Shown: in pieces, positions 31,799 through 64,000 of the stretch
Numbering within the stretch: the first letter of the stretch is position 1
Layout of the letters: each line of letters begins with the position of its first letter
Source: Escherichia phage JLBYU40
Direction: 5' to 3' (one strand)
Length of the DNA stretch: 64,000 nucleotides
Sequence record: NC_105514.1
Program-made: the position numbers and the translations under genes
The notes under the pieces: generated by a model
Told to the model about the DNA's origin: nothing
What the model saw: the letters and a program-made list of their open reading frames with translations, nothing else
Databases searched by the model: none

Positions 31799-31816
31799 AT
31801 GAGTTTTTCTTGAAAT

Positions 31817-32162: not shown

Positions 32163-32168
32163 ATTGTT

Positions 32169-33210: not shown

Positions 33211-33236
33211 AGCGTATTTCTCGTGCTAGTTTAGTT

Positions 33237-33313: not shown

Positions 33314-33322
33314 ATAATTCAT

Positions 33323-33508
33323 TTACTCAGCTTTGAGTTTTTCAATAGCTGCATTAAGTTCCTTAAGAAACTCTTTTCGTACATTAAGACGATTAAGACT
33401 TACTAGTATATCATGTTTAAGTTCTTCGATGTATTTCTTCTCAACTTCAATATTGTTGATAGTGCTATCACGATGAACTTCTAGCTGTGCAATTACGTTC
33501 TTGGACAT
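33323..33508 (-). CDS. hypothetical coiled-coil protein
   Basis: 61 aa ORF. Confidence 0.35.
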   Translation of the reverse strand: MSKNVIAQLEVHRDSTINNIEVEKKYIEELKHDILVSLNRLNVRKEFLKELNAAIEKLKAE

Positions 33509-33610
33509 GCTTGTTTCCTCAGTTATTAATGAAAATGGTATCTGTGGCTGAATTCGATGTCAGCAATGATAGCTGGTTGGCTACCGGTTTACTTAACTCT
33601 ACACAGAATT

Positions 33611-33688
33611 TGGCGGTTCCTGCTGGATTCGAACCAGCAACCCTCAACTTAACAAGATGCCGCTCTAACCAATTAGAGCTAAGGAACC
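33611..33688 (-). tRNA. tRNA-Asn (GTT)
   Basis: perfect acceptor and T-arm, CCA; anticodon loop TTGTTAA but stem has two mismatches. Confidence 0.45.
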
Positions 33689-34183
33689 ATATAAGTCAGA
33701 ACTAGAGTTAATACGTTCTAGATATTTACTAAGATCTCTAGAATTTATACTAAACCACTCATGTTCTTTTAAATCTTTGAAATACTGGTGAATTAGTTTT
33801 TCACCTTTTCGTTTGTCAAACCAAAAAGACCAATGCTCTAACTTATAATCCCTATAAGGGGAATAAGTCTGATATTGAGCTAATCTCTCTTTTGGATTTT
33901 GACTCATACCTATTTTATACTGATTTTTCCATGCAGGATTACTAATACAGTATACAAAACCTTCAGAAATAGGAAGTTTATTTTCCTGCTTAAACTTTAT
34001 AAAGGAAAGTGCAGCAAGTTTTCTCGAATACATAGTATTTGTATTCTTTTTGGTATTACCATTGGTTCCTGAAAGATTTATATATTCTTCCATAAATCTT
34101 TGGATTAGTTCTGCGGTTATATAGAAGGGCTCATTAGTAACAATACCTTTCTTTACCAAACTATCAAAAACTCTTGTATGCAC
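33665..34183 (-). CDS. T5orf172-domain (GIY-YIG-like) protein
   Basis: 172 aa; GFVYCISNP...YKIGMSQNPKERLAQY resembles the T5orf172 motif; 3' end overlaps tRNA-Asn by ~24 nt. Confidence 0.55.
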   Translation of the reverse strand: MHTRVFDSLVKKGIVTNEPFYITAELIQRFMEEYINLSGTNGNTKKNTNTMYSRKLAALSFIKFKQENKLPISEGFVYCISNPAWKNQYKIGMSQNPKERLAQYQTYSPYRDYKLEHWSFWFDKRKGEKLIHQYFKDLKEHEWFSINSRDLSKYLERINSSSDLYGSLALIG

Positions 34184-34204
34184 TACTTCTTTCCTTTAGT
34201 AATT

Positions 34205-34280
34205 TGGACGACCGCATGAGATTTGAACTCACATAAAAAGGATTTGCAATCCTTCGCCTAAGCCATTCAGCCAACGGTCG
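34205..34280 (-). tRNA. tRNA-Cys (GCA)
   Basis: acceptor with terminal G-U, anticodon stem AAGGA/TCCTT, loop TTGCAAA, CCA. Confidence 0.55.
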
Positions 34281-34357
34281 GTTTATCTTGTTCTGTCATG
34301 TTGCTTCTCCAGTTCAATTTATGTAATTATTATACAGAACTTTTGGAAACTAAGCAA

Positions 34358-34627
34358 CTACATTTTTAAGAATTTGATGCCTTTCTTTTTCTTCTTATAT
34401 TTCCACGTTAATGGATTCTGCCGATTGTGAACGCTTGAGATCTTCGTCTCGTCAAAGTTCTTCAATATCATGTAATCACAAGATAATTGTTCTAATGGAA
34501 TGTGATCACCGTCAAAAGCATATACATAAGGCTGTTGACTAACACGATAATGATAGACTTTGTTAATTCTACGTTTTAGCGACTTATCAGCGCAGTAAAT
34601 AAAGAAGTTTTCAGGATGCATCAGCAT
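34358..34627 (-). CDS. hypothetical basic protein
   Basis: 89 aa ORF. Confidence 0.4.
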   Translation of the reverse strand: MLMHPENFFIYCADKSLKRRINKVYHYRVSQQPYVYAFDGDHIPLEQLSCDYMILKNFDETKISSVHNRQNPLTWKYKKKKKGIKFLKM

Positions 34628-34638
34628 CTCCTTCGATT

Positions 34639-34713
34639 TGGTGCACCCTGTTCGTATCGAACGAACCTCTCAAGCTCTTCAGGCAAGCGCTAATCCATCT
34701 CAGCTAAAGGTGC
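34639..34713 (-). tRNA. tRNA, probably Phe (GAA)
   Basis: good acceptor, T-arm, CCA; anticodon loop CTGAAGA but stem has two U-U mismatches. Confidence 0.4.
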
Positions 34714-34719
34714 AAATTT

Positions 34720-34796
34720 TGGCAAACCTACTAGGACTCGAACCTAGACCGTACGGTTTTGGAGACCGACATGCTGTCCAGTAACACTCTAGGAAT
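34720..34796 (-). tRNA. tRNA-Trp (CCA)
   Basis: anticodon arm CGGTCTCCAAAACCG as in bacterial tRNA-Trp; perfect T-arm; acceptor has two U-U mismatches; CCA. Confidence 0.5.
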
Positions 34797-34804
34797 GCAG
34801 AAAT

Positions 34805-34881
34805 TGGCGTCCTGTGCGGGGATCGAACCCGCAAATCCTACCTTGAAAGGGTAGTGACTTTACCAGTTTGTCTAACAGGAC
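34805..34881 (-). tRNA. tRNA-Glu (TTC)
   Basis: perfect acceptor, anticodon stem CTACC/GGTAG, loop CTTTCAA, CCA. Confidence 0.65.
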
Positions 34882-34888
34882 TTAAATT

Positions 34889-34979
34889 TGGTGTTGGATG
34901 ATGGAGTCGAACCACCCGAGACCCTTCCGAGTCGGCAGATTTACAGTCTGCTTCGCTACCTCTACGATACTAATCCAAC
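34889..34979 (-). tRNA. tRNA-Tyr (GTA), type II
   Basis: anticodon arm GCAGACTGTAAATCTGC, long variable arm, CCA. Confidence 0.65.
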
Positions 34980-35107
34980 ATATTTAAAAGTATTCAAATA
35001 CTAGTTTAAACACTTTTAAATATGTTTCCGAATTAGATAACTATTATATCAAGTTTTAAGGCACTGAGCAAGTCAAATTTTAAAGAACTTGCTCAGTGCT
35101 GTATTAG

Positions 35108-35383
35108 TTAGTCGAACTTAGGAGTGACAGTTAAGGAGAACGGAAGTTCGAAAACTTCTTCGCCCTCATTACTAACGGTAACTACACGACCTTTAAGTTC
35201 AGACATTAAAATATCAATATCAGCTTTTGCATCTGGAGCCATGCCAGCTTCAATACATTTAGCTTTAACTTCCGGTAAAAGCTCTACGTTATAGAGATAG
35301 AGCCACTCAATCTCACCTTCCCAGTCTTCCCAGGATTTGCAGATTGCACTTTCAATACCAGTTGCTACAACACGATTTTGCAT
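35108..35383 (-). CDS. hypothetical acidic protein
   Basis: 91 aa ORF with early promoter upstream. Confidence 0.45.
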   Translation of the reverse strand: MQNRVVATGIESAICKSWEDWEGEIEWLYLYNVELLPEVKAKCIEAGMAPDAKADIDILMSELKGRVVTVSNEGEEVFELPFSLTVTPKFD

Positions 35384-35473
35384 TAATTAACTCCTTCATC
35401 AATTTATATAACTATTATACCAGAAATTTAAAGTAAAAGGCAAGTACATTTTTAAAAATTCTGTTTGGAGGAG

Positions 35474-35680
35474 CTAAACTCCAGATTTTTCGGCCAAGTC
35501 TAGACTAATAAGAGTTATAGCCATAATTGCTGCACCGTGTTCTTTTTCTCCGGTGTTTTTAGCAGAGTCTATAATATCCTTAATCTGTTCGTAATAACTT
35601 TTTACTTCTTGTTCAATGCCTGCCTCGGCTATCATGCCTTTAGCCATGAATCGTTGCATGGTAATTTCAGGATTAGCCAT
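35474..35680 (-). CDS. hypothetical protein
   Basis: 68 aa ORF. Confidence 0.4.
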   Translation of the reverse strand: MANPEITMQRFMAKGMIAEAGIEQEVKSYYEQIKDIIDSAKNTGEKEHGAAIMAITLISLDLAEKSGV

Positions 35681-35855
35681 GTTGTTTCTCCAGTTTCATT
35701 TTTAATAGTTTACAGATGAAATCAACGTCTTCATCTGTGCCTAAGTCTCTATCCTCAAGGGTCGCCTTGAAGTTTTTCGTCAATTCCATGAGGATGACTT
35801 CCCTAGAACGACGTGTTGGCGGAGGTGGATGTCTATACATCTTATTTCCTTAATT

Positions 35856-35932
35856 TGGTAGGGGTGGTGGGATTCGAACCCACAAAACCTGAATTTTAAG
35901 TCCAGTACCTATGCCAATTCGATTACACCCCC
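35856..35932 (-). tRNA. tRNA (anticodon TAA, Leu-type; short variable loop)
   Basis: acceptor GGGGGTG/CACCCCT, anticodon stem CTGGA/TTCAG, loop CTTAAAA, CCA. Confidence 0.45.
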
Positions 35933-36148
35933 GTGTAATTTAGTCAATTACTTTTGAAGCTTCAAGGTAGTCGATATAGTGTACGTTTTCTACCGTAATC
36001 ATATAATCTGCCACTTTATCCATAGCTTGGGCTTCAGAGGTAGCTCTGGCTAACCTATATCCTTTTTTATATTCATCAGAGTATTCTCTATCTTGAATAA
36101 ACACAACATAAACTACGTATAATTCCACTTGTAACCCCCTAATTAAGT

Positions 36149-36226
36149 TGGTGGCTCCCCGAGGATTCGAACCTACGTACCTTCCGGTTATGAGCCGGGT
36201 GCTCATACCATATGAGCTTGAGAACC
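36149..36226 (-). tRNA. tRNA (anticodon CAT; Met, fMet or Ile2)
   Basis: acceptor with two G-U pairs, D-arm GCTC/GAGC, anticodon loop CTCATAA, CCA. Confidence 0.5.
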
Positions 36227-36232
36227 AAAATC

Positions 36233-36321
36233 TGGCGGAAGAAGTGGGAATCGAACCCACAAGGCTATATTTCAAACCGACAGATTAGCAATCTGCTGCA
36301 ATACCGTTATGCTATTCTTCC
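36233..36321 (-). tRNA. tRNA-Ser (GCT), type II
   Basis: perfect acceptor, anticodon stem GCAGA/TCTGT, loop TTGCTAA, long variable arm, CCA. Confidence 0.6.
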
Positions 36322-36342
36322 GAATTTATAAGATATATTATA

Positions 36343-36862
36343 TTAGAAATTTAGCTTCATAGCAAGAAAATTTTTCAAGTTTTCGGTAGACATCTCATCT
36401 ACATCTACAGGAGAAACAAAGCCGTTTAATTTTCTAGCAAATTTTTCACCATCGGGATCATTGTCTCCAACAGCTACCAATTTAAAAGGTAGTAATTTCA
36501 GTTGCTTTAATAACGCTTTTCCTGGAGAAGAACCCAACATTGCTAGGGCTGGATAACCAGCGTTATGTAACGCAACTGCCTTAAATACAGATTCAGCAAT
36601 CAATACTACTTTTTCATCTCCATTGAGAGTTTCTAGTCCCCATACACACTGGGTAGTAGAATAAGTAAAGTATTTAGCTTCAAAGGGGCACTTACCATGA
36701 CCTTTTGGAGCAGAAGGATTATAAGTTTGATAGCCCCTCAACATCCCAGAGAAGTCATACAACGGGACTGTTAGCCATCCTTCTGGACTTAACCAGCAAT
36801 GATATTTATCTGTATCAAATCCCCTAGATAAGAGGTGCTGTGTTAGCTCATCAACATTCATA
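36343..36862 (-). CDS. Toprim-domain protein
   Basis: 173 aa from the Met at 36862 beside an early promoter; IAES...VAVGDNDPDGEKFA resembles the Toprim E + DxD signature. Confidence 0.45.
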
Positions 36863-37036
36863 TTTGGTTCCTCTCTCAAATTTATAGATATATTATACAG
36901 AGAATTTAGCATTCAAGCAATCAAATTTTTTAACTTTTTAGAGGAAAATCATAGGGCGCTTAAGGGTAACAGATAAGTGGTGAGGACCAAAATTTGTGAC
37001 CCCACTAAAAATCCGGGGGCAATTTTTAAAGACCCC

Positions 37037-37065
37037 TTGACATTTTCGCTGGGGTAGTGTAAAGT
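37037..37065 (+). promoter_or_regulatory. sigma70-type promoter of the plus-strand island
   Basis: perfect -35 TTGACA (37037-37042), 17-bp spacer, -10 TAAAGT preceded by TG; unlike the phage early promoter family. Confidence 0.5.
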
Positions 37066-37127
37066 ATATGTTATGGATGAGTGATCAAAGAGACACACAT
37101 TTTCTATATACTAGGAGGTGTCAAAAA

Positions 37128-38114
37128 ATGACAGAAGAAGTAGCTAAGAGTCCTGAGACCGTCGCTAGCGTTGCAGCAGAACTGCACCGTCACGAGGAAT
37201 CAGATAAGAAAAAGTGGGAGAAGGTCAGAGCCTACGAAGAAAAACATCGTGAACACGATGATGAAGAAGATGACGATGATGAACATTGTCATAAATATGG
37301 AAAACATAAAATGCAAGAACCAGTAAACGTATTCACTAGTGGCTTCCCTGGCCTACTGGGTGGTTACCCAGCAAACGCAGGTGCTTTCGGTGGTGAAGGT
37401 ATGGGACTATTCGGAGCTATCCTAATCGGTGCTCTATTAACAGGTGGATTCGGTGGTTTCGGTGGATTCGGTGGACGTGGTGTAGTTGGTGAAGGTACCG
37501 CAGTTGATGCAGTACTTCAGAACCAAGATACCGCTAGTATTCTAGCAGCTATTAACACTACTCGTACAGAAGCTAATCAGGGTACTGGGGCTGTGTTAAG
37601 CGCAGTTAACAATGGTTTTAGCCAGACATCCCAAAACCAGAGCCGTGATACTCAGTCTGTACTAACTACGATTTATGGTACAGGTGCTAATCTGTCTAAT
37701 CAGATCTGCCAGGAAACTCGCAACGTTATTCAGGGTCAGTTCGATCTTTCTCGCCAGATTGATCAATCTTTCGCAGCTAACCAGATAGCTCGTGCACAAG
37801 ATAAATTTGATTCTGCACAGATCGCTTTCCAGCAGACTTTACAAACTAATAACCAGTTTGCCGCTGTTCAGGCTCAGATGTGTGCTAACCAGAACTCTCT
37901 GGAACGTCAGATCGCTGAATGTTGCTGTGAACTTCAGACTGCGATCGCTGGTGTAACTACTGCGCGTATCCAGGATGAGTTAGATGCATGTCGCCTACGT
38001 GAGGCAATCGCTGCGGGTAATGGTGCTAACGATCAGGTAATTAATCAAATCGCTGTAAGTCTTGGTGCAATCACTCAGACTCTGGCTGGTCTGCAGGCTA
38101 AACTGCCGGCTTAA
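37128..38114 (+). CDS. glycine-zipper membrane protein with acidic/His-rich N-terminus and Q/N-rich C-terminus
   Basis: 328 aa from ATG 37128 (RBS TAGGAGGTG); GLFGAILIGALLTGGFGGFGGFGG segment; CCC motif; GC visibly above flanks. Confidence 0.55.
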   Translation: MTEEVAKSPETVASVAAELHRHEESDKKKWEKVRAYEEKHREHDDEEDDDDEHCHKYGKHKMQEPVNVFTSGFPGLLGGYPANAGAFGGEGMGLFGAILIGALLTGGFGGFGGFGGRGVVGEGTAVDAVLQNQDTASILAAINTTRTEANQGTGAVLSAVNNGFSQTSQNQSRDTQSVLTTIYGTGANLSNQICQETRNVIQGQFDLSRQIDQSFAANQIARAQDKFDSAQIAFQQTLQTNNQFAAVQAQMCANQNSLERQIAECCCELQTAIAGVTTARIQDELDACRLREAIAAGNGANDQVINQIAVSLGAITQTLAGLQAKLPA

Positions 38115-38135
38115 TATTAAGGGGAGGAGCCCATT

Positions 38136-38552
38136 ATGAGTAAATATGGTTTTGTAAATAACGGACTTAATCAAAGTATGGGCTCCCAGCAGCCCATTCC
38201 GGGTCTGGATAACCCCTACTTACAACAATTGCAACAGCGTTTAGCAGAAGCGCAACAGATGCAGCAACAACTCCAGCAAAACCCTGGAAGTGTGAGTCCT
38301 ATGCAAATGATGCAGCAAATGAGCGGGCAGTCGCAAATGCCTCAACAAATGCAGCAACAGGTGCCTCAGCAGCAAGTTCAGCAACAAACCCAACAACCGC
38401 AGGTTTCTGCGGAAGGACAGGCAGTACTAGCCCTTTTCGAAGACTTCGCAAAGACAGAGGATGGGAAACAGCTTGTATCACTTATGGGTAAGTTTAATAG
38501 CTTCTGCCAAAGCCAGGTTGCAAAAGCTCAAAATAGTGGTAATAACTCCTAA
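38136..38552 (+). CDS. glutamine-rich low-complexity protein
   Basis: 138 aa; RBS GGGGAGGAG; long Q/M/P-rich stretch. Confidence 0.5.
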   Translation: MSKYGFVNNGLNQSMGSQQPIPGLDNPYLQQLQQRLAEAQQMQQQLQQNPGSVSPMQMMQQMSGQSQMPQQMQQQVPQQQVQQQTQQPQVSAEGQAVLALFEDFAKTEDGKQLVSLMGKFNSFCQSQVAKAQNSGNNS

Positions 38553-38561
38553 GGAGGAATT

Positions 38562-38756
38562 ATGTGTTGCAGAAAATCTGTTTCGTGCTGCCCAATGCCT
38601 GTAGCACGTTGTTGCTCTCCAGCAATGTTTACGCAAATACCGGCGTTCAATCCGTTTGCCTTTAAGCCTACTCTTATCCTGCCCCCTAGAGTAGATTTTC
38701 AGTCAAGATTGGCCTCCCGTATGGGTAGTTGCTGTAACAAGAGTATATGGTTCTAA
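38562..38756 (+). CDS. small Cys-rich protein
   Basis: 64 aa; RBS AAGGAGG; four CC doublets. Confidence 0.45.
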   Translation: MCCRKSVSCCPMPVARCCSPAMFTQIPAFNPFAFKPTLILPPRVDFQSRLASRMGSCCNKSIWF

Positions 38757-38769
38757 GGAACCAAACAAT

Positions 38770-38810
38770 AAAGCCCCTAGTCGAAAGACTTAGGGGCTTT
38801 TCTTTTATCT
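38770..38810 (+). terminator. Rho-independent terminator of the plus-strand island
   Basis: ~11-bp GC-rich stem with GAAA loop followed by TTTTCTTTTATCTT. Confidence 0.6.
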
Positions 38811-38851
38811 TAAATACAGAAAAGCCCTGCGCTCTCTAGGAAACGCAGGGC
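38811..38851 (-). terminator. Rho-independent terminator for the SPFH gene
   Basis: 9-bp stem AGCCCTGCG/CGCAGGGCT with a T-run on the minus strand. Confidence 0.55.
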
Positions 38852-38876
38852 TTATTTCAGATGTTACATGCGGGTA

Positions 38877-39824
38877 TTATTTATTACGCATATCCATAAT
38901 CATTTGGCCATCATAGCCAGTGCCAACCACAGTCTGCGGTACACCACCTTGGTATTTCTGAGCACGAATCATTTCAACTTCCAGTTGCTTCCAGCGAATC
39001 ATCTCAGGAGTAATGGTACGTTGCAATGCGGCGTTAGCTTCAGCTTCTTTCTTAGCTGCATATAGTTTAGCATCTGCGTCACGTTCATTGGCAATAGCTT
39101 GGTTGTTGCGAGCTTCACGGTCTGCTTCTGCTTGTTTAACTTTTTGCTGTGCTTCCTGTTCAACGCGAGCCAGTTCAGCTTTCGCAGCATTAACTTGCTC
39201 TTCACGAACTTTGGTATTCTGTACCTGTTCCATGATTACCGGTGGCAAAGTAATATCCTGAAGGAATACCTGCTTAACTGTATAACCATATGGGCGTGCA
39301 TACTCTTCAACTTCCTGTTGAATTGCAGTTTGCAATTGAGCCTGAATTTTAGCATCAAACAAATCTTGTGCTTTAGGTACAGACTTACCAAACTCACGAA
39401 TAGTAGACAGTAATTTTTCAGTTACATACTTGTCTAGTGCCTGATCCTGAGTACCTGCGTTAATACGGTTAATTGGTGCCTTAGAACCATCAAACTGCAA
39501 CATAACAGTCAGGTCAACAGTGGATTTAAACTTATCCTGGCTAGGAACCTGAAGTTTATCTAATTTTACAGCAATATCTTTTGTACTAAAAGTGTCGAAA
39601 GATGCAAATGGGTTTACAAGATGGAAACCTGGTAATACTGGGTTAGGATCTACTTTACCCAGAAATGTTTGGGTTTTAACCGTACCATCAGAAACAATAG
39701 TATATGAATTAAAAGCTAGGATTAAACCTGCTAAACCAACTACAGCACCAATACCCCAACGTTTAATAGTACGAATTACTTTCTGCTCAGAAGTCAGTTC
39801 TTTCATATTTTTAGTATTAAACAT
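38877..39824 (-). CDS. SPFH/band-7 (prohibitin/HflC-like) membrane protein
   Basis: 315 aa; N-terminal TM helix, SPFH-like core, long charged coiled-coil C-terminus. Confidence 0.6.
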   Translation of the reverse strand: MFNTKNMKELTSEQKVIRTIKRWGIGAVVGLAGLILAFNSYTIVSDGTVKTQTFLGKVDPNPVLPGFHLVNPFASFDTFSTKDIAVKLDKLQVPSQDKFKSTVDLTVMLQFDGSKAPINRINAGTQDQALDKYVTEKLLSTIREFGKSVPKAQDLFDAKIQAQLQTAIQQEVEEYARPYGYTVKQVFLQDITLPPVIMEQVQNTKVREEQVNAAKAELARVEQEAQQKVKQAEADREARNNQAIANERDADAKLYAAKKEAEANAALQRTITPEMIRWKQLEVEMIRAQKYQGGVPQTVVGTGYDGQMIMDMRNK

Positions 39825-39858
39825 ATATTTCCTTTGTTTTAGTTACAGTTAATAAAAT

Positions 39859-39933
39859 TGGCCGAGGTGACAGGATTCGAACCTGCATAAAGGAATTTAG
39901 AAGACTCCTGCCTCTCCCTTAGACTACACCCCG
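39859..39933 (-). tRNA. tRNA-Arg (TCT)
   Basis: acceptor CGGGGTG/CACCTCG, anticodon stem GGAGT/ATTCC, loop CTTCTAA, CCA. Confidence 0.5.
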
Positions 39934-56751: not shown

Positions 56752-57244
56752 TACTCCAATTATTTTTCTAGATATTGATGGGGTGCTCAATTCGAGCATC
56801 TCCCACCATCATGCGCCTGATCATGAAAAGATTTTCTTTGGAAGTGACTGGGTTTTCAAACCGCTTCTCAAGGCTTTTCAGGACTTTATTCGTCCTTCTC
56901 CGATAATGATTGTTGGAGTATCCTCATGGTTCCCTGTCAGGAATGAGATGGAGAACGTTCAGATTATGACCGGATTAGGTCTTATCGATCGTTTTCTTGG
57001 TACAACGGATTTTACTGGTGGTGGGCTATCTAGGGGTAATTCTGTTCTTCGCTTCGTTGAAAAGCATAAGCTCAAACATTGGTGTGTGCTGGATGATGCT
57101 GGTGCTATGATGTACCAGTATCCAACGGTTATAGTCAACGGTAGAACTGGAATAAATCTTCAAGATTTAAGAGCTGTTAGCTATATGCTAGAATTTAGCC
57201 CAGATCTTGAAATGTGTAAATCCTTACAACAATTTAAGGTGTAA
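56738..57244 (+). CDS. HAD-like hydrolase
   Basis: 168 aa; N-terminal IIFLDIDGVLN (DxDGV). Confidence 0.45.
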   Translation: MEISNTPIIFLDIDGVLNSSISHHHAPDHEKIFFGSDWVFKPLLKAFQDFIRPSPIMIVGVSSWFPVRNEMENVQIMTGLGLIDRFLGTTDFTGGGLSRGNSVLRFVEKHKLKHWCVLDDAGAMMYQYPTVIVNGRTGINLQDLRAVSYMLEFSPDLEMCKSLQQFKV

Positions 57245-57246
57245 AT

Positions 57247-57675
57247 ATGTTCAATAATGTATTCTCTAAAGAAGCTAACCCAATTTTGGTTAACTTTTGG
57301 CGTACTCTCCCGGCTAGCCTGTATAATGAGGCTATTAACTCCTTGAAAATATGGTGTGAAAATAATGAAATCTCCTTTGCTTTTAAAGATGATATTGATG
57401 AGGCCCCCTGTATTGGTTTAGTTGTGCAGGTAGAGGATGGTCTTGAAGAGATTGTGGGCTGGAAAGAGTTAGACGAAATGGGCTTAGTTTTTGCGTTAAA
57501 TTATAAGCTGTTTATGCCTGCTAAGCATCGCCTCGTTGTTAACCATAAAACTAGTGAATCTCCTGGTTTTCAGGTTAATGAACGTTATGGTTGGTCTTAC
57601 TCACCGGAAGAAGTAAATGAGGGGATTCAGAAACTTCGCCGTTTTGGTTATCAGATTCCGGGTTTAACTGCTTAA
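57247..57675 (+). CDS. hypothetical protein, paralog A
   Basis: 142 aa; shares D(D/E)PCIG...W(K/N)EL(D/S)(E/A)MGL(V/I)(F/V)ALN(Y/F)(K/S)LF(M/H)P and ...Y(Q/V)(I/P)PGL(T/N) with the next ORF. Confidence 0.5.
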   Translation: MFNNVFSKEANPILVNFWRTLPASLYNEAINSLKIWCENNEISFAFKDDIDEAPCIGLVVQVEDGLEEIVGWKELDEMGLVFALNYKLFMPAKHRLVVNHKTSESPGFQVNERYGWSYSPEEVNEGIQKLRRFGYQIPGLTA

Positions 57676-57684
57676 GGAGGCAGA

Positions 57685-58077
57685 ATGGAACAAGTATATT
57701 GGCGTCAGATTGATCCTAGTTTGGTGAAGCGTGCGGAGAAGCTGCTACAACGTTGGTTGGGGGTAAGACAAGCCTCCTTCACTTTTCCGGAGCAGCAAAT
57801 AGACGATCCCTGTATTGGTGTTTTCCTATCAGGCTACGCTAGGGAATGGGAATTGGATTGGAATGAATTGTCTGCTATGGGCTTGATTGTTGCCCTAAAC
57901 TTCTCTTTGTTCCATCCACGTGGTTTGGCCATATGTCGTGTGCCTGATGACGGTTGTTCGCCCCATCTTTTACAGGTGGAAGATGATATTTGGGAGTACA
58001 CTCCAGATATTCTCACAGAAGCTAAAGAACAATTAAATCGTGTTGGGATTTATGTTCCGGGCTTAAATGATGAATGA
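57685..58077 (+). CDS. hypothetical protein, paralog B
   Basis: 130 aa; tandem paralog of 57247-57675; RBS AGGAGG. Confidence 0.5.
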   Translation: MEQVYWRQIDPSLVKRAEKLLQRWLGVRQASFTFPEQQIDDPCIGVFLSGYAREWELDWNELSAMGLIVALNFSLFHPRGLAICRVPDDGCSPHLLQVEDDIWEYTPDILTEAKEQLNRVGIYVPGLNDE

Positions 58078-58168
58078 TTTTTATTAGCTGAAATTTGTAA
58101 TCCGGGCTATTAGTGCTCGGATTATTACATAATCTTTCCAGTCGATTGACAGTCAAAATAAATTGTCG

Positions 58169-58197
58169 TTGACAATTTGGATGGATTATGTAATAAT
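58169..58197 (+). promoter_or_regulatory. candidate promoter with palindromic TTGACA repeats
   Basis: GATTGACAGTCAA...GTTGACAAT with an A/T-rich -10-like AATAAT at 17 bp. Confidence 0.3.
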
Positions 58198-58216
58198 ATA
58201 TGTATTGGAGGTGAGG

Positions 58217-58669
58217 ATGTCATTCACACAGCAAGAACTTTTAGATAACTTCCGATATGAAGATGGTAAGTTATTTAGAACTACAGGAAGAAATGCAGGG
58301 AAAGAATGTTGTGTTTCTACGGGTAACGGATATTATCGTATATCTCTAGGGAATAGGACTATGCTTCGGCATAGAGCAATATTTTTAATGCATCATGGAT
58401 ACTTACCTGATTTAGTAGATCATGTGAATACTATAAAAGGTGATGATCGTATTGAAAATCTTAGAGAGCAGACAGTGTCCGGTAATCTAAGAAATATCAA
58501 ATATAAGAAAGGAATGCATGTTTACCCTTCTGGTAGTAAGAACTGGCAAGTAGTATTTACTATTAACCGTAAACGTATAGTTAAAGGAACATATGACAAC
58601 TATGAGGTTGCATGTTCTATGGCCAAGATGTTTAGAGGTCAATTATACGGTAGGGAATCAATCCAGTAA
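58217..58669 (+). CDS. HNH homing-endonuclease-like protein
   Basis: 150 aa from ATG 58217 (RBS GGAGGTGAGG); HRAIFLMHHGYLP...VDHVNTIKGDDRIENLR. Confidence 0.55.
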   Translation: MSFTQQELLDNFRYEDGKLFRTTGRNAGKECCVSTGNGYYRISLGNRTMLRHRAIFLMHHGYLPDLVDHVNTIKGDDRIENLREQTVSGNLRNIKYKKGMHVYPSGSKNWQVVFTINRKRIVKGTYDNYEVACSMAKMFRGQLYGRESIQ

Positions 58670-59204
58670 AATTTCATTTGCAAGGGAGTATTATTTTATA
58701 GTATAATATTCCCATAAATGAGAGACATTAGTAAAAATTGATTTTGCTAATTTTTCTTGTTTACAATCCGCGATACGGAACAGTTAGGCTGCCCCATTAA
58801 GGGTTGTTTTAACTGTTACGTGTTAGTTTTTAAACAAATAGTTAATAGAATACTTAGCGATCTGCGTCCCATAGGAACCCTGGTAAGGCCTCGAAGCAAC
58901 CTAGTATGAGGTGGTTGTGAAGTGAGATGGGAGGAGTGAAAAACTCCGAGACGTGATTCTGTAAGTTATATTGCATCTAGTATGAGCTAGTATATGAAGC
59001 ATTAGGTGAGCAAATCTGGCTTAGCGGCCATCCTCAAGGATTTGTGCGGTATAACAAAGCAGCAGCGCAGCGTGAAAGTGGAAGTTGCCACCCCACTTCA
59101 GTATTTGCGATTAATTTGTTGAGAAATTGACAGTAACAGTTGTTCTATTCTTTCTGAATAGTCCTAAAGAAAACTTATTTCATTTCCAACACAGGAGTAT
59201 TGTT

Positions 59205-61991
59205 GTGTTTTCAATCCTACAAGGTCATGCAGGATTTCATCGCGATTTAGCCACAGGCAATTGGCGAGAAGTTAAAGCAGAAGACTATCTTTTTGCTAAA
59301 AGATTTTCCTCAAAGCATCCTGAAGGTAAACCAGCTTCAATGCCCTTCAAGTTTGATGTAATTGATGAAGTTGATCCTCAAACCCTAGTAGAAATGCTTC
59401 CTCTTATGAGACGTTTAACGTCTGACCCTCATATCGTTGCGGTACGAGGTCGATGTCTTGCACCTAAAAATAATGTGCGACGTAAGAAGGGCAACTTTAA
59501 TGTATCTAACCCAAGTCATATAATTGCAATGGACGTGGATGGTATTGTAGATACAGGTGGTTGTAACAAGTTTGATCTTGTTGGCATGGCCCGACATATT
59601 ATTAGGATGTTAAATAGTATTAGTGAGGATATGTTTCCTCTTGATGCAGGGTTTATCGCTCATGCATCATCTTCGGCTGGGCTAAAACCAGGTATCCGAA
59701 TGCACTTAATACTAGAATCTAATGTTAAAGTAACTCAGGGTCAAATCAAGTTCTTATTTACATCTATCAATGAAAGTAGTAGACAAAAGTATGGCTTTGA
59801 TATTGCCGACTTAGCTTATTACTCTTCCGTACAGCTCCATTATTTTGCAGATCCGTTATTTACAGATGGTATAGTAGATCCGTTTAAAGCGGAGGGTGCT
59901 TCACGTCTGGTATTTGTTAAGGGTTCTAAAGTAAATTTACCCAATAATCTGGTTGACTATGAAACAACTAGAGGCGAGTTTAAAGAGGAGTTTTACTCTT
60001 TACTCGATCAAATTAAAGGTAAAAAAGCCGCCTCCGATAAAGTAGAGGAAACTATCAGCGAACTAGAAGAAGCTGAGGATGGAGTGTATCTACGTATTAT
60101 TCCTAAACTCTATCACAGGGCTTTAGAGGATGGTGTTGATTTTGCATGGCTAGAAAAAGAAATCCGTCCAGCCTTATCAGAGTATATTGCAACTAAAGAT
60201 AATAGTCGTAATATTCAAGACTACTTTAACAACGGTCGTAAGCAGGCTCTGAAAGCGTTTGTTAATAATTCTAAACGTGATATACCGGATGTTTTAAAAG
60301 GTATTCCACTTAAAAAGCTAGAAACTAACTCTCTAGAGACTGATAACTTCTTGAAATTAAATACTGTACCACCAGAAGGTTATATGACTTTTGTAAAAGC
60401 AAGTCTAGGTACAGGTAAAACTACGGCGGTTGTGCGTTGGCTGGATTCAGGAGTTATTAAGGGTAATTTCTTAGCAATTACCAATACTAGGGCACTAGTG
60501 TCTTCAAATGCTAAGAAATTTAGTGCAGGACAATATGATAAGTCTGTAGATATGCTTAATTTTAAGCGCGGTGCTATTGACCGTATGTCCACAACTATTC
60601 ACTCTTTACATAAGTTCAAGAGTTTTATTGGTCAAATTGATGCAATCTTTATCGATGAATGTGATGCTGTAATGAATGACCTATTATTCGCCCCGGTTGT
60701 TAAGCAACGTCGCGAGTGTATTCAGGTTCTTCGGGATATTCTTGCAACTGCAAAAATCATTATATTATCTGATGGTGATATTAGTGCTGAAACAATTGAA
60801 GCATATGGTTCTTTGATTGAGTTTGATAAACCGGTTGCATTTTATAATCATCACCGTAAGATGCTGTCAAAAGCTCATGCTTATGAGTTCCCTGATGAAT
60901 CTAGTATTTGGGTTGCACTTCAGACTTCTCTAGAGATGGGTGAGAAATCTATTCTGGTATCTGACTGTGGGCCGGATGAGCTGAATGAGAAGGGCATGGC
61001 ATTGCGTCATAATACGGGTGCATTAGTTAAGGAAATCCACTCAAACTCTACGTCTGATGTAGATATTAGACGTATCCTGGATTACACAACTAATGAGTTA
61101 ATTGACCAACAAATTGATTGCTTATTATGTAGTCCATCCGTAACGAGTGGTGTTGACTTCAACTATTTTGATAACGTATTCGTTATTACTAGAACCAGTA
61201 ATCAGGCGCCAAACATGCGTTTCCAAGCAATCAGGCGCGACCGTGGTGCTCAGAACATCTATTATTTTATTGATAAATCCACTAGTGGATTCTCCGCAGG
61301 TTCCGAACAATATAATATTGATGAAGGTTGGCTGGAGTTAGCACAGCAATTATACGCACGTCGCAGAGAGCTAGAATCTAGGAACTATACTAGTACTTTA
61401 CGTTATTACTTGCTTGATCAGGGTGCAACTATTGATATTTTCAGCGAAAGCTGGGGAACTATTGAAGGTGCTGGTAAAGAGTACACAGAAGAGCGAATTA
61501 AAGCTATTCTACATTCAACTCCGGATTATTGTGCTCCACGTCATGCGGATGCGTATGAAGCTAAACTACTTCTTGTTCGCTATTATCATCTCGAGTCTAT
61601 TAAAGATGTAACAGTTGAGCATGTTGAACAATATATCAAAGATAAACCAAATGATCGAGCTGCATTCTTCCATAAGATGCATGAGATGTTCTGGGAAGAT
61701 ATTAAGAAGTGTTCAAATGTGACCATTAAACCATTCATAGAAGCTCTGAAAGGTAAGAAGAAGGATTTCTTCCTTAAAACAGGTCAGAGTGCTAACCCAA
61801 AATATGCTAGAATGTATCTTGGTATGATGGGTATTGGTAAGGATATGAACACTGAAAATATTGTAGACTGGTACAGAACCTATTGTAAAATCGAGTGTAT
61901 GCCAATTCCTTTCAAATTCATGACAGAGGAAGAGAAGGCTATGGCAGAAGAAGTAATGTCCGAACTTGGAGCAACCAATGAAGATGCATAA
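59205..61991 (+). CDS. large Walker A/B NTPase, helicase/replication-initiator-like
   Basis: about 928 aa from GTG 59205 (RBS AGGAG); ORF track gives 954 aa from a TTG; Walker A GTGKT, Walker B FIDECD. Confidence 0.5.
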   Translation: MFSILQGHAGFHRDLATGNWREVKAEDYLFAKRFSSKHPEGKPASMPFKFDVIDEVDPQTLVEMLPLMRRLTSDPHIVAVRGRCLAPKNNVRRKKGNFNVSNPSHIIAMDVDGIVDTGGCNKFDLVGMARHIIRMLNSISEDMFPLDAGFIAHASSSAGLKPGIRMHLILESNVKVTQGQIKFLFTSINESSRQKYGFDIADLAYYSSVQLHYFADPLFTDGIVDPFKAEGASRLVFVKGSKVNLPNNLVDYETTRGEFKEEFYSLLDQIKGKKAASDKVEETISELEEAEDGVYLRIIPKLYHRALEDGVDFAWLEKEIRPALSEYIATKDNSRNIQDYFNNGRKQALKAFVNNSKRDIPDVLKGIPLKKLETNSLETDNFLKLNTVPPEGYMTFVKASLGTGKTTAVVRWLDSGVIKGNFLAITNTRALVSSNAKKFSAGQYDKSVDMLNFKRGAIDRMSTTIHSLHKFKSFIGQIDAIFIDECDAVMNDLLFAPVVKQRRECIQVLRDILATAKIIILSDGDISAETIEAYGSLIEFDKPVAFYNHHRKMLSKAHAYEFPDESSIWVALQTSLEMGEKSILVSDCGPDELNEKGMALRHNTGALVKEIHSNSTSDVDIRRILDYTTNELIDQQIDCLLCSPSVTSGVDFNYFDNVFVITRTSNQAPNMRFQAIRRDRGAQNIYYFIDKSTSGFSAGSEQYNIDEGWLELAQQLYARRRELESRNYTSTLRYYLLDQGATIDIFSESWGTIEGAGKEYTEERIKAILHSTPDYCAPRHADAYEAKLLLVRYYHLESIKDVTVEHVEQYIKDKPNDRAAFFHKMHEMFWEDIKKCSNVTIKPFIEALKGKKKDFFLKTGQSANPKYARMYLGMMGIGKDMNTENIVDWYRTYCKIECMPIPFKFMTEEEKAMAEEVMSELGATNEDA

Positions 61992-62496
61992 ACCAATGCC
62001 TCCTATGGCATTTATCCTAGAAAAGCTTAGGTATGACGAAAGTACTGGGGACTTAATTTGGTTATCTGGCCCAAGGAAGGGAAAGATAGCGGGCTCCAAA
62101 ATGAAAACTGGGAGACAGTTAGAGTTTATGATAAATGGAGAGCATACAGCTTACTTAGCCCATAGAATAATCTGGTTTATAAAGACAGGCGAAGATCCTG
62201 GAGATAAAACTATCGACCACAAAGACGGTGATAGTTTAAACAACTTGTGGGATAATTTACGTAAGGCTACCTATTCCGAAAATGGAAAGAATAAGAAGTG
62301 TTCTACTAATTCTACCGGATTCACTGGAGTTGTAAAACGAGGTAATAGGTATATGGCCTACGCTTACTGCAATGGAAAACAGCATATTTTTGGTAGACGA
62401 GATACCCCGGAAGAAGCCCATCAGCTATACCTTAGGGGAGTTAAAGAACTGTTTGGTGAATTTAATCCCTCGGAGAGATATGACAGTGAAGAATAA
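61966..62496 (+). CDS. HNH endonuclease with AP2-like domain
   Basis: 176 aa; IDHKDGDSLNNLWDNLR then GFTGVVKRGNRYMAYAYCNGKQHIFGRRDTPEEAH; start overlaps upstream stop. Confidence 0.55.
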   Translation: MEQPMKMHKPMPPMAFILEKLRYDESTGDLIWLSGPRKGKIAGSKMKTGRQLEFMINGEHTAYLAHRIIWFIKTGEDPGDKTIDHKDGDSLNNLWDNLRKATYSENGKNKKCSTNSTGFTGVVKRGNRYMAYAYCNGKQHIFGRRDTPEEAHQLYLRGVKELFGEFNPSERYDSEE

Positions 62497-62713
62497 AAAA
62501 TGGGAAACAAGGAAGTTCCCCGTAAAAGAGCGTAAAGTTCCTGTTTACGATACTTCGGAAAAGCTATGTAGGGTGGTACCGCACAGATTAGCTGGCATCC
62601 CTAACATATCCGAATGGTTACTTAAACAACGGAAAACAAACGTGTCTCTTCGCATCGGCTTTGAGTTAGATAAAGTCTATGCTGAACTTGCTTCTTTGCT
62701 CAAGGAATCGTAA
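62480..62713 (+). CDS. hypothetical basic protein
   Basis: 77 aa from ATG 62480; the longer listed ORF overlaps the HNH gene. Confidence 0.35.
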   Translation: MTVKNKKWETRKFPVKERKVPVYDTSEKLCRVVPHRLAGIPNISEWLLKQRKTNVSLRIGFELDKVYAELASLLKES

Positions 62714-62721
62714 AAATTTAT

Positions 62722-62750
62722 TTGCTTTCAGGAAAATTTTTCTGTATAAT
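62722..62750 (+). promoter_or_regulatory. plus-strand early promoter
   Basis: -35 TTGCTT, 17-bp spacer, -10 TATAAT, then ATAGATTCATAAATTTGAGAGAGAGGAG leader. Confidence 0.6.
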
Positions 62751-62783
62751 AGATTCATAAATTTGAGAGAGAGGAGTTTAAAT

Positions 62784-63488
62784 ATGGCTGGTTCTCGCAG
62801 AAAGAAACATATCCATGAAATCCCGGATGAAGTCTTTAAAAAAGTTATAGAGCATCTGGAGAACGGTGGTACTAAGAAAGCAGCATGTGAAATGCTTGGC
62901 GTATCATCCAATCCAACTATGGAAAGGATGATTGAAGAATGGCAAGACCGCCAGATTCAAGTTGCCGAGATGAAGAAAAAGAAACGTGGTACACTCATTG
63001 AAGGTATTGAGTTGGCCAACGTTATTGAACAGTATCTATCTGGCGATTCTTTTGAAGAAATTGCCGACCGTAATTACCGCTCTGTAGCAATGGTTAAATC
63101 TGTTCTGGAACGCTATGGTGCTTTGCTTCGTTTGAACGATATTGTAGACCCATTGAATCCTCCAATTATTCCTGATGATGCTGTGGCAGAAGAATTTGAA
63201 GTTGGTGAGCTTGTTTGGGTTCCTGGATACCAGTGTATTGGTGAAATCAAAAAAGCAATGGATAATCCTGTTGGTTGTTACCGTGTTTGGCTTCTATCAG
63301 AAGGCAAACAACAGAACGTCCATTATATGAATTACGAGCTGGCTTCTGTTAAACATCTGGAAAAGTTAGGGGTAGACGTAAAATCTCTAGGGTATAAATG
63401 GACTCGTGAAGAAATTATCACACTGATTAATGAAGCTGTTAAGGCTGCCTTGAAACTTGATAAAGAAAAAGGAAAACGCCGTGAGTAG
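62784..63488 (+). CDS. hypothetical protein, possibly DNA-binding
   Basis: 234 aa from ATG 62784 (RBS GAGGAG); the longer 62679 start lies within the promoter. Confidence 0.5.
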   Translation: MAGSRRKKHIHEIPDEVFKKVIEHLENGGTKKAACEMLGVSSNPTMERMIEEWQDRQIQVAEMKKKKRGTLIEGIELANVIEQYLSGDSFEEIADRNYRSVAMVKSVLERYGALLRLNDIVDPLNPPIIPDDAVAEEFEVGELVWVPGYQCIGEIKKAMDNPVGCYRVWLLSEGKQQNVHYMNYELASVKHLEKLGVDVKSLGYKWTREEIITLINEAVKAALKLDKEKGKRRE

Positions 63489-63732
63489 ACTAACTGATTT
63501 ACTTAAAGATGGAGAAGTAAAAACTCTGTATCGTAGAAGCTGGGATAATGATAATAATGGCTTAGTGTTACTAACTTTAGATGCTGACTCAGATGTAGCT
63601 ACTCAGCATACCTGGGTAGCCGGTAACTATCCATATAGCGAGGTTGTTTCATTAACAGTATGCGAAGCTATTGCTGACGATTGGGAGGTTGCCAGCATTG
63701 ATGATATGCTCGCTGTTGGCCTGGTGGAGTAA
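63481..63732 (+). CDS. hypothetical acidic protein
   Basis: about 83 aa from in-frame GTG 63481; the ORF-track start is a TTG. Confidence 0.35.
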   Translation: MSRLTDLLKDGEVKTLYRRSWDNDNNGLVLLTLDADSDVATQHTWVAGNYPYSEVVSLTVCEAIADDWEVASIDDMLAVGLVE

Positions 63733-63835
63733 CTACTTAAAAATTTCAGTTGCTTAATCCTACAATTCTTGATATAATATTCTCATAGTTTGAAAGAACT
63801 ATTCTGTTTAATTCTTAATTAAGGAAATATAAAAT

Positions 63836-64000
63836 ATGACTACTCCAACTCAGTGGACTGATGAACTGTTCGAAAAAATGTCTTCCGAATACGTTGCTCG
63901 TATGGAGCAATTCCCAGAGGATGAACGTCCGGGTGTTAGCATGGAAATTGTTAGCGAAATTGCCCAGGAAAATGGTGTAACTCCGAACGGTTTTCGTATG
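63836..64000 (+). CDS. hypothetical protein, 5' partial (runs off window)
   Basis: ATG 63836 with RBS AAGGAAAT; open to the window end. Confidence 0.45.
   Translation, partial: MTTPTQWTDELFEKMSSEYVARMEQFPEDERPGVSMEIVSEIAQENGVTPNGFRM

Follow-up and report, generated by a model that had tools for sequence, protein, structure and literature searches.

Here, we show that the window, a 64,000-nt stretch of Escherichia phage JLBYU40 (NC_105514.1), carries directly upstream of its D2 helicase gene a noncoding block whose plus-strand transcript is predicted to fold into a conserved RNA of ~440 nt. This block is the interesting part of the locus, being a large conserved folded RNA outside Rfam, while the optional HNH insertions around it are ordinary T5 biology. 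The genome is a Tequintavirus with 96.5% identity to phage BB1, and the region is best explained as an early locus of replication genes in a T5-like phage. The arrangement described in an earlier note made from the sequence alone, two HNH genes around a large NTPase gene, was recovered (Pfam HNH_3 in both HNH genes; a 928-aa ORF at 59205-61991).

The leader and the D2 helicase gene

The leader and D2 form a single plus-strand unit with the following features:

58678..58707, plus strand, early promoter of the leader/D2 unit (TTGCAA, 18 nt, TATAAT), equivalent to T5P32 (consensus and T5 annotation)
58670-59204, plus strand, noncoding block before D2, in which no ORF is conserved or exceeds 50 aa
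59193..59207, plus strand, Shine-Dalgarno AGGAG (59193-59197) and D2 GTG start (59205-59207), read from the sequence
59205..61991, plus strand, D2 helicase, 928 aa, elsewhere annotated as 'replication origin binding protein' (T5 D2 orthology, Pfam)

In the T5 annotation, the gap opens with a terminator, followed by promoter T5P32. A TTGCA...TATAAT promoter was found 490-503 nt before the D2 start in the examined Escherichia, Salmonella, Klebsiella and Pectobacterium T5-like phages; the distance grows to ~600 nt where the leader carries an insert, and in Proteus and Providencia loci the promoter lies further upstream of D2. No antisense promoter was evident in the leader, and no terminator-like site was found between the RNA domain and D2. 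In Markadamsvirinae, the leader sequence lies between promoter and start codon with neither a terminator nor a second promoter intervening (no TTG.., 16-19 nt, TA.AAT site close to the D2 start). Proteus phages do have a consensus promoter in the interval from the RNA to D2, 66 nt ahead of D2, and Pectobacterium phage DU_PP_V has a weaker site resembling a promoter there (TTGATG, 17 nt, TATAAT; at -96), yet both keep the upstream RNA motifs, which hints at a role beyond that of a 5' UTR. As read from these signals, the 500-nt gap is transcribed territory extending from a conserved strong early promoter to the D2 start codon. We found no T5 transcriptome paper covering the leader region in the literature.

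By orthology, the large NTPase is the bipolar SF2 helicase D2 of T5, with 93.5% identity to T5 D2 at equal length and with the same start. T5 D2 has been characterised as a bipolar SF2 helicase, and the start codon seen here is the one used for its expression (PMC3632103; Wong, Sayers and Sanders 2013). The earlier description of a ~928-aa Walker A/B protein holds: the ORF contains Walker A (GTGKT) and DECD motifs, Pfam Herpes_ori_bp matches residues 394-533, and UL9-type chains in the PDB match the helicase core (E = 2e-5), so that orthology, both motifs and the core all identify a T5 D2/UL9-like SF2 helicase. The likeness to the herpesvirus UL9 origin-binding protein resides in this core; origin binding by D2, however, is putative. 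The N-terminus MFSILQG with the GTG start is kept in all relatives, the start codon being GTG or ATG among them. The N-terminal 390 residues matched no Pfam or PDB family, and structure prediction gave a pLDDT of 34 and no usable model. As a side observation, invariant DxD, S...H and D residues in this N-terminal region recall archaeo-eukaryotic primases, a pattern resemblance only.

Predicted fold and covariation of the leader RNA

The block had been described as ~500 bp without an ORF, elevated in GC and rich in complementary segments. All three properties were confirmed: its ORFs are unconserved and no longer than 50 aa, the GC of its core is 0.48 against 0.39 for the whole window, and it has covarying pairs and a plus strand that folds better than shuffled sequences (z = -3.5, 0 of 100 shuffles as good), compared with z = -1.6 for the minus strand. 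The predicted elements, all on the plus strand, are as follows:

58720..58758, plus strand, P1, 5'-terminal stem-loop (58720-58736 with 58742-58758), compensatory changes at 5 pairs in Klebsiella and Pectobacterium relatives
58772..58797, plus strand, invariant block GAUACGGAACAGUUAGGCUGCCCCAU, including the small hairpin P2 (58777-58784 with 58788-58795), from invariant alignment columns
58810..58854, plus strand, closing stem, 5' strand, pairing with 59100-59142
58857..59098, plus strand, multi-helix core, ~240 nt, GC 0.48 (RNAalifold)
58857-58867 with 59065-59073, plus strand, core helix P4 (RNAalifold)
58868-58872 with 58927-58931, plus strand, core helix P5 (RNAalifold)
58896-58901 with 58913-58918, plus strand, core helix P5a (RNAalifold)
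58933-58947, plus strand, core helix P6 (RNAalifold)
58959-58973 with 59047-59062, plus strand, core helix P7 (RNAalifold)
58974-58981 with 59001-59008, plus strand, core helix P8 (RNAalifold)
59010-59017 with 59038-59045, plus strand, core helix P9 (RNAalifold)
59018..59029, plus strand, hairpin P9a, GGCUUAGCGGCC, with invariant CUUAGCGG core, from invariant alignment columns
59076-59098, plus strand, core helix P10 (RNAalifold)
59100..59142, plus strand, closing stem, 3' strand, pairing with 58810-58854
59145..59161, plus strand, P11, small hairpin (CUAUUC/GAAUAG), located 3' of the structured domain and 5' of the ribosome-binding site, one covarying pair

We show that the ~440-nt plus-strand RNA is modelled as a 5' hairpin, an invariant block, a ~38-bp closing stem and a branched core with the invariant CUUAGCGG hairpin. 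The closing stem has small bulges and a duplex energy of -32.7 kcal/mol, and its inner 31-bp segment contains 13 covarying pairs (e.g., AACUGUUAC/GUAACAGUU versus GAUUAUUAUACAG/CUGUAUAAUAAUUC). The core was modelled with RNAalifold on window-type, Klebsiella and Pectobacterium sequences, among which nearly every core helix has compensatory changes. In P9a, the second pair of the stem, read by eye, is G-C, C-G or A-U depending on the lineage, and Proteus and Providencia phages have a stem around the same CUUAGCGG motif. The interval from P1 to P2 accommodates insertions of 25 and 97 nt. At the position of P11, Klebsiella and Pectobacterium relatives have different sequences that, by eye, are still self-complementary. 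The ribosome-binding site lies outside the pairing of the big domain, with only a weak 5-bp hairpin there; it is not sequestered, and there is therefore no obvious on/off switch.

Compensatory changes were present in 35 of the 94 pairs predicted by RNAalifold. Paired cells amounted to 96%, compared with 35-48% when partners were slid, and none of 500 shuffles reached any of the five measures used, the structure tested being derived from the same alignment. Paired substitutions span helices up to 330 nt apart. The aligned sequences represent about six lineages, so the cell counts overstate the number of independent events. G-U cells outnumber A-C cells by 255 to 12, indicating that the structure belongs to the plus-strand RNA. 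Separate analyses of the window-type and T5-type groups gave the same architecture, with just 58% identity between their cores against 82-95% identity in the flanking genes. Compensatory changes keep the helices on one strand, and the noncoding RNA suggested in the earlier note is supported insofar as the plus strand has a conserved, covarying RNA structure.

The Rfam scan recommended in that note returned no known family at E <= 1 in the window region 57000-64000. Searching the leader alone at E <= 10 gave noise only, and eight relatives gave nothing at the gathering score. These searches used Rfam 15 (4227 models), which include group I introns, riboswitches, ROOL, GOLLD, OLE, HEARO and rne5. 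A group I intron was rejected separately: a terminator and then a promoter lie upstream, there is no upstream exon, and D2 begins after the element. Motif searches of IMG/VR and metagenomes restrict the RNA to enterobacterial T5-like phages, since the true matches (31 in IMG/VR and 8 in metagenomes) are all T5-like leader sequences, the IMG/VR ones on T5-like phage genomes. No description of the leader RNA was found in the literature.

Possible roles of the leader RNA

The reading that we prefer, with confidence evenly poised, is that the block would serve as a structured leader acting in cis on the D2 mRNA. The 5' hairpin and the compact domain might stabilise the D2 message, and the domain might set the amount and timing of D2, a control probably mediated by a protein that recognises the invariant loops, either D2 itself or a host factor. 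Against this reading stand the ribosome-binding site, which the domain leaves free, and the size of the fold, since known phage translational operators are, to our knowledge, far smaller than ~440 nt. A comparable leader is that of E. coli rne, which is 361 nt long, autoregulatory and represented in Rfam by rne5. Both are conserved structured leaders of several hundred nucleotides before the gene of a nucleic-acid enzyme, and in neither is the ribosome-binding site simply buried; the D2 leader, however, has no sequence or model match to it, its closing-stem architecture differs, and binding by D2 to its own leader is only conjectural. For RNase III, a likely site of processing is the long, double-stranded closing stem, at which cleavage would part the core from the translated mRNA, and the leader RNA is possibly processed into a stable RNA. 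RNase III processing stems are known in rRNA operons and T7 early mRNAs. Similarly, D2-leader segments ~250-330 nt apart form a duplex of ~38 bp that brackets a structured RNA, within an early phage transcript of the host RNA polymerase; T7 sites, in contrast, are local hairpins rather than stems enclosing a 240-nt core, and cleavage in the D2 leader is putative.

It is conceivable, although we consider it rather unlikely, that the core is instead a stand-alone, stable ncRNA acting in trans, cut from the leader at the closing stem as rRNAs are by RNase III, with its place before D2 mainly ensuring co-expression. Such an RNA might be a partner of D2 or of its N-terminal domain, a regulator of a host machine, or a decoy for host defence. 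Its size and architecture, with a branched core, a ~38-bp closing duplex and invariant loop nucleotides, are closer to those of excised stable RNAs than to those of operators, and the accessible ribosome-binding site, the tolerated P1-P2 insertions, and the promoter-like site between the RNA and D2 in Proteus phages, less clearly in DU_PP_V, also fit a trans-acting product. However, the RNA is always directly upstream of D2, on the same strand and at a nearly constant distance, every true match in IMG/VR and metagenomes is a T5-like leader, and no terminator was found 3' of the RNA. Among large RNAs, ROOL, GOLLD, OLE and HEARO share with it a length of several hundred nucleotides and many covarying helices, and ROOL and GOLLD, like it, are often carried by phages. 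They differ in that the D2 leader, searched alone, matches no Rfam family, these included, at E <= 10 and occupies a fixed gene-leader position in enterobacterial T5-like phages only; moreover, HEARO goes with IscB and not with small HNH_3 genes.

The suggestion in the earlier note that the block may be a replication origin was not supported, and we regard as improbable an origin used by D2, whether a DNA element, a single-strand initiation signal or an R-loop-primed origin of the ColE1 RNA II or T4 type. Its location is suggestive: the block is at ~49% of the T5 genome and adjoins the gene of the UL9-like helicase that has been proposed as the T5 initiator (PMC3632103), a paper that cites internal T5 origins reported by electron microscopy. 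A conserved promoter reads into the block, and an RNA-primed form would be compatible with the covariation. Nevertheless, the block has neither the iterons or initiator boxes nor the AT-rich unwinding element of a DNA-element origin. Only scattered two-copy repeats at chance level occur in it, it is GC-richer than its flanks, the cumulative GC skew has no turn there, and the promoter reads in at a fixed distance. Pairing is also strand-asymmetric, since the helices are kept via G-U, which gives A-C mismatches on the other strand, and the conservation is therefore not that of a duplex-DNA or cruciform element. [quoted passage not shown] In a recombitron study, one strand preference at sites across T5 was interpreted as a predominance of unidirectional replication starting at one end (PMC10055335).

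We find it scarcely credible that decayed coding sequence or small genes missed in annotation account for the block, with the apparent structure as a by-product of composition. Some GenBank records of Vibrio and Proteus phages do list small hypothetical ORFs for the corresponding gap, and the window has a 50-aa TTG ORF at 58757-58909. No ORF, however, is common to the window-type, T5-type, Klebsiella and Pectobacterium leaders, substitutions are paired over the distances given above, and leader length is held at 490-503 nt.

HNH cassettes on either side of the leader/D2 unit

By alignment with HNH-less phages, HNH-1 and HNH-2 are free-standing, predicted homing-endonuclease cassettes that flank the leader/D2 transcription unit as insertions and bring spare copies of what each of them displaced:

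58093..58719, plus strand, HNH-1 cassette, ~627 bp (alignment against HNH-less phages)
58169..58197, plus strand, promoter-like site of HNH-1 (TTGACA, 17 nt, AATAAT, extended TG), 11 of 12 consensus positions, a consensus match only
58217..58669, plus strand, HNH-1, free-standing HNH endonuclease gene, 150 aa (Pfam HNH_3 E = 2e-11; PHROG 99)
61975..62476, plus strand, HNH-2 cassette, ~502 bp, approximate boundaries (alignment against HNH-less phages)
61978..62496, plus strand, HNH-2, free-standing HNH endonuclease gene, 172 aa (Pfam HNH_3 E = 1e-12; PHROG 99)
62480..62713, plus strand, conserved 77-aa gene (PHROG 5291), right-hand border of the HNH-2 insertion

Both genes have an HNH catalytic domain above the Pfam gathering score, and their proteins are only 27% identical to each other. 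The presence/absence comparison across relatives proposed in the earlier note showed that neither is uniformly present, HNH-1 being carried by 41 and HNH-2 by 22 of ~451 related GenBank records; T5 itself is without HNH-1, and SP15 is without HNH-2. The polymorphism falls exactly at both junctions, with clean boundaries and sizes of ~502-508 bp, which supports the idea of mobile insertions.

HNH-1 is labelled a homing endonuclease in the BB1 and AKFV33 annotations. In the junction alignment, likeness to HNH-less phages ends past TTAGCTGAA and restarts at GAGAGACATTAG, giving a net insertion of 508 bp with defined borders. The cassette stands in place of ~120 bp of HNH-less relatives (terminator and native leader promoter) and, by this alignment, supplies a replacement for the displaced promoter. 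One relative (L031, matching Shigella phage SHSML-45) retains two promoters, that of the cassette and the native one, each with a P1. HNH-1 proteins are 99-100% identical between phages with flanking genes only 93-96% identical, which, together with this duplication and that of the D2 3' end described below, indicates recent horizontal spread.

HNH-2 is a homolog of T5 hegI/P-TflIX, a name taken from the BB1 annotation, and is 97.7% identical to the T5 protein; it also weakly matches I-HmuI (PDB 1u3e). Its longest ORF is 61966-62496, and the T5 and BB1 annotations start the gene at the ATG at 61978. The reported overlap with the NTPase stop is real, the last 14 nt of the D2 ORF being shared. 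In HNH-less phages, the 77-aa gene overlaps at its start with the D2 stop. The cassette delivers a new D2 C-terminus, and HNH-2 terminates on the former D2 3' end, leaving this end duplicated and diverged. An 'AP2-like domain' noted earlier in HNH-2 was not recovered, as Pfam gave HNH_3 alone at E <= 10, a search in which HMMER filters lose most matches above E ~0.1 and a weak AP2 match could escape. By eye only, the C-terminal sequence is AP2-like.

Overall, HNH-1 and HNH-2 resemble the T5 HNH homing endonucleases (F-TflI/II/IV and the putative P-TflIX/hegI) in their HNH_3 domain, PHROG 99 membership, small inter-gene position and patchy presence among otherwise syntenic genomes. They differ in that HNH-1 is not in T5 and that cleavage or nicking by HNH-1 and HNH-2 is putative. 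T5-like genomes reportedly differ mainly through their homing nucleases (PMC10644984).

A conserved sense-strand RNA fold in the D2 leader

The valuable part of the finding is the noncoding block that separates a T5P32-type promoter from D2, the 928-aa helicase gene. The earlier note had called this block structured, and we show that the leader (58670-59204) indeed carries a conserved, covarying RNA fold on the + strand. Compared with shuffled sequences, the + strand folded with z = -3.5 and the - strand with z = -1.6. From an alignment of 15 sequences covering about six lineages, RNAalifold predicted 94 pairs, 35 of which keep their pairing through two-sided changes. Standard pairs fill 96% of the alignment cells, a share that drops to 35-48% once the 3' partners are shifted by 1-3 columns, and double-change pairs number 35 against 9-12 in these shifted controls, contrasts that are somewhat inflated because the structure was derived from the tested alignment itself. 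None of 500 shuffles attained the observed values in the pair-count test, and the effect size, together with the long-range helices, makes a chance origin of the pairing unlikely. G-U combinations occupy 255 cells and A-C combinations only 12; therefore, the constraint acts on the single-stranded + strand rather than on duplex DNA.

Predicted features of the leader and the D2 start (P1-P11, helices of the leader RNA)
58678-58707, + strand: promoter, TTGCAA and TATAAT separated by 18 nt (sequence match)
58720-58758, + strand: P1, 5'-terminal stem-loop (RNAalifold)
58772-58797, + strand: invariant block GAUACGGAACAGUUAGGCUGCCCCAU
58810-58854 with 59100-59142, + strand: closing stem, about 38 bp, -32.7 kcal/mol
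58857-59098, + strand: branched core, GC 0.48, holding P9/P9a and P10
59018-59029, + strand: P9a, GGCUUAGCGGCC, within stem P9 (59010-59017 with 59038-59045)
59076-59098, + strand: P10, hairpin whose loop contains GUUGCCA (loop read from sequence)
59145-59161, + strand: P11, small hairpin
59193-59197, + strand: Shine-Dalgarno sequence AGGAG, with the GTG start at 59205

In the closing stem, the inner 31-bp segment holds 13 covarying pairs, as illustrated by AACUGUUAC/GUAACAGUU in the window versus GAUUAUUAUACAG/CUGUAUAAUAAUUC in Pectobacterium phage DU_PP_V. At least two strongly differing sequence versions of the core exist. Identity between window-type and T5-type cores is 58%, near the level of unrelated sequences in such an alignment, versus 93% for the 5' 112 nt and 82-95% for the neighbouring genes; both versions share the same fold outline, with further compensatory changes inside each group. 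Some phages (loci L006, which is DT57C, L013, L028 and L035) carry a 97-nt insertion flanked by the direct repeat TTTTTCTT, at about window position 58752, in the linker that joins P1 to the invariant block. Taken alone, this piece is not unusually structured (z = +0.3). In Salmonella phage KKP_3822, the insertion at this position is 25 nt long and U/C-rich. The linker looks like a hot spot for insertions.

Transcription unit and distribution of the leader

In the T5 annotation, a terminator follows T5.107 and the putative early promoter T5P32 lies where the gap begins. All Escherichia, Salmonella, Klebsiella and Pectobacterium loci examined have a TTGCA...TATAAT promoter, which lies 490-503 nt before the D2 start, or about 600 nt in loci with the 97-nt insert, and no terminator-like site was seen between promoter and D2 in the window. 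Judged from sequence, a conserved promoter precedes the leader, and the element is always the 5' part of the predicted D2 transcript in T5, in Epseptimavirus and in phages of the window's type.

Conservation of the fold extends over T5-like phages of Escherichia, Salmonella, Klebsiella and Pectobacterium, and traces of it occur in those of Proteus and Providencia. Phages of Proteus, Providencia, Vibrio and Aeromonas have gaps of 640-1600 bp ahead of their D2 homolog, and their leaders were not reached by a sequence-only nhmmer profile. By eye, the stem around the CUUAGCGG hairpin is kept in the Proteus and Providencia phages as the sole recognisable arrangement, while no motifs in common with the element were detectable in the Vibrio and Aeromonas gaps. 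Upstream of the D2 homolog of Vibrio phage PG07 (locus L045), a segment of about 57 nt (GACUAUCACUUUGUAGCCUCAAUCCUCGGAUUGUGUGAGUCAGUUAACUUCUGUCG) occurs in two direct copies at ~1230-1400, a region with a folding z of -2.8 that may represent another RNA or else an iteron-like element. In Aeromonas phage TS3 (locus L046), about 1.6 kb upstream of the D2 homolog (19-1608) is without an annotated gene.

True matches in the fixed-motif scans numbered 31 in IMG/VR and 8 in metagenomes, all in T5-like phage sequence, along with 7 chance matches to unrelated GC-rich DNA; these scans revealed neither new diversity nor another genomic context. At permissive thresholds, no Rfam family matched 57000-64000 (E <= 1) and the leader alone gave only noise (E <= 10), eight relatives had no match at gathering score, and our literature search found no description of the leader RNA. 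A tRNA/tmRNA scan placed 22 tRNA genes in a cluster at 28416-39933 on the - strand, as expected in a T5-like phage, and none in the leader. T5 has served as a model since the 1940s, and in this classic system the leader stands out as a large and well-supported candidate for an RNA family.

Possible roles of the leader RNA

We propose that the element acts in cis upon D2 expression, possibly through stability, timing or feedback by a protein recognising the invariant loops. With its long, near-perfect duplex, the closing stem would be a site for RNase III, and a cut there would free the core from the translated mRNA. A simple cis switch would sit less easily with three observations: the ribosome-binding site is not buried, the element far exceeds known phage operators in size, and promoters lie between the RNA and D2 in Proteus phages (a consensus promoter) and in DU_PP_V (a weaker promoter-like site). 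It is on account of these features that we give a minor share of the probability to the reading of the element as a stand-alone, processed noncoding RNA. Rather improbable is a specific form of processing, in which a core of about 240-300 nt, cut from the D2 leader at the closing stem, accumulates as a stable trans-acting RNA; such an RNA might serve as a subunit or guide of the D2 helicase, or as a decoy against host defence. If true, it would represent a previously unrecognised class of large noncoding RNA in one of the oldest model phages.

The suggestion that the block is a DNA replication origin did not gain support: iterons and an AT-rich element are lacking, the pairing is strand-asymmetric, and GC skew does not turn there. 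The repeat search for iterons in the leader returned chance-level two-copy matches only. A single strand preference has been published across T5 (PMC10055335), which speaks for replication mainly from one end, and our literature search found no mapped T5 origin. Priming of an origin by RNA, as in ColE1 or at the T4 R-loop origins, keeps a low probability. We rejected a small-ORF reading because no ORF is common to the leader types; a group I intron was also rejected, there being neither an upstream exon nor a model match.

If the element controls D2, its size would be unusual among phage leaders; if processing turns it into a stable RNA, a large noncoding RNA would be added to a tractable E. 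coli system in which genetics, structure probing and cryo-EM are straightforward. A large covarying fold directly before a proposed initiator helicase offers a concrete, easily mutated handle on two poorly understood questions in T5, namely how replication starts and how early genes are tuned.

The D2 helicase and its optional HNH cassettes

As regards the genes, the finding is correct but already known. The 5.4 kb at 57600-63000 align over their full length with Escherichia phage BB1 at 96.5% identity and match 451 phage records, whose names are nearly all T5-like Salmonella or Escherichia phages (Demerecviridae in the records checked). Gene order is as in T5: a Sir2-like gene, T5.106, T5.107, a 'replication origin binding protein' gene and a 77-aa gene. 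The T5.106 and T5.107 homologs (57247-57675 and 57685-58077) are paralogs (32% identical, E = 6e-20), the latter matching Pfam DUF7415.

The large NTPase reported earlier is a 928-aa ORF at 59205-61991 (+) with GTGKT and DECD motifs and a Pfam Herpes_ori_bp match at residues 394-533; its start (GTG, MFSILQG...) is kept in every relative compared. Wong et al. expressed T5 'D2' from the same start, characterised it as a bipolar SF2 helicase and proposed a role as replication initiator (PMC3632103). The window protein shares 93.5% identity with T5 D2: 85-98% in the first 360 residues, only 60% in the linker before Walker A (residues ~361-400, window ~60285-60404) and 98-100% from about residue 520 onwards. 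A divergent N-terminal half co-occurs with a divergent leader core in all loci seen, which could be explained by adjacency alone. The N-terminal 390 residues had no match in a PDB profile search or in Pfam, where 12 diverse homologs were scanned as well, and a single-sequence AlphaFold model of this domain was unusable (pLDDT 34). Invariant DxD, S..H and D residues in it resemble in pattern those of archaeo-eukaryotic primases, and some GenBank records label the gene primase. By tblastn, the domain is present in 904 phage records. A search of 5.8 billion proteins returned two short fragments only; this word-index search apparently misses the phage family of D2 almost entirely. The retron-Eco11 paper was set aside as evidence on D2, the helicase there being D10.

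Both flanking genes, HNH-1 (58217-58669) and HNH-2 (61978-62496; longest frame from 61966), match Pfam HNH_3 above the gathering score and PHROG 99, and the 'AP2-like domain' ascribed to HNH-2 lacks Pfam support. We compared their presence across 34 IMG/VR loci and several GenBank loci. HNH-1 is present in BB1, SP15, Shivani, AKFV33 and the IMG/VR loci L008, L018, L026 and L031 (L018 and L031 being apparently AKFV33 and SHSML-45) but not in T5; T5, BB1 and a few others carry HNH-2, which SP15 and most of the remaining phages lack. Among about 451 GenBank records holding the locus, 41 contain HNH-1 DNA and 22 HNH-2 DNA.

Each gene lies in a cassette with clean boundaries. That of HNH-1 (~627 bp, 58093-58719) substitutes for a 120-bp terminator-plus-promoter segment of HNH-less phages and brings along a copy of the downstream promoter. 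Without an HNH gene, the D2 stop overlaps the beginning of the 77-aa gene; with the 502-bp HNH-2 cassette comes a diverged new D2 C-terminus, and HNH-2 closes on the former D2 3' end. HNH-1 is 99-100% identical where flanking genes differ by 4-7%. Presence or absence at the junctions, defined borders and an HNH-1 more similar than its flanks uphold the suggestion of mobility, and the pattern of both genes is consistent with free-standing homing endonuclease genes, a category described as the main difference among T5-like genomes (PMC10644984). This result is routine; it helps annotation in that both genes are dispensable cassettes, one rewriting the leader promoter and the other the D2 C-terminus.

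In L031 (1840-2060; it matches Shigella phage SHSML-45, and Shivani is similar), the cassette promoter and ~45 nt from the 5' end of the leader (P1) are kept and followed by the native terminator remnant, the native promoter and the full leader, so that promoter and P1 are duplicated, with the junction at a shared TTTTCT. Some relatives have yet another HNH-type gene, with 35% identity to HNH-1, directly downstream of the 77-aa gene (5506-5805 in L013 and L040); there are therefore at least three separate endonuclease insertion sites around D2.
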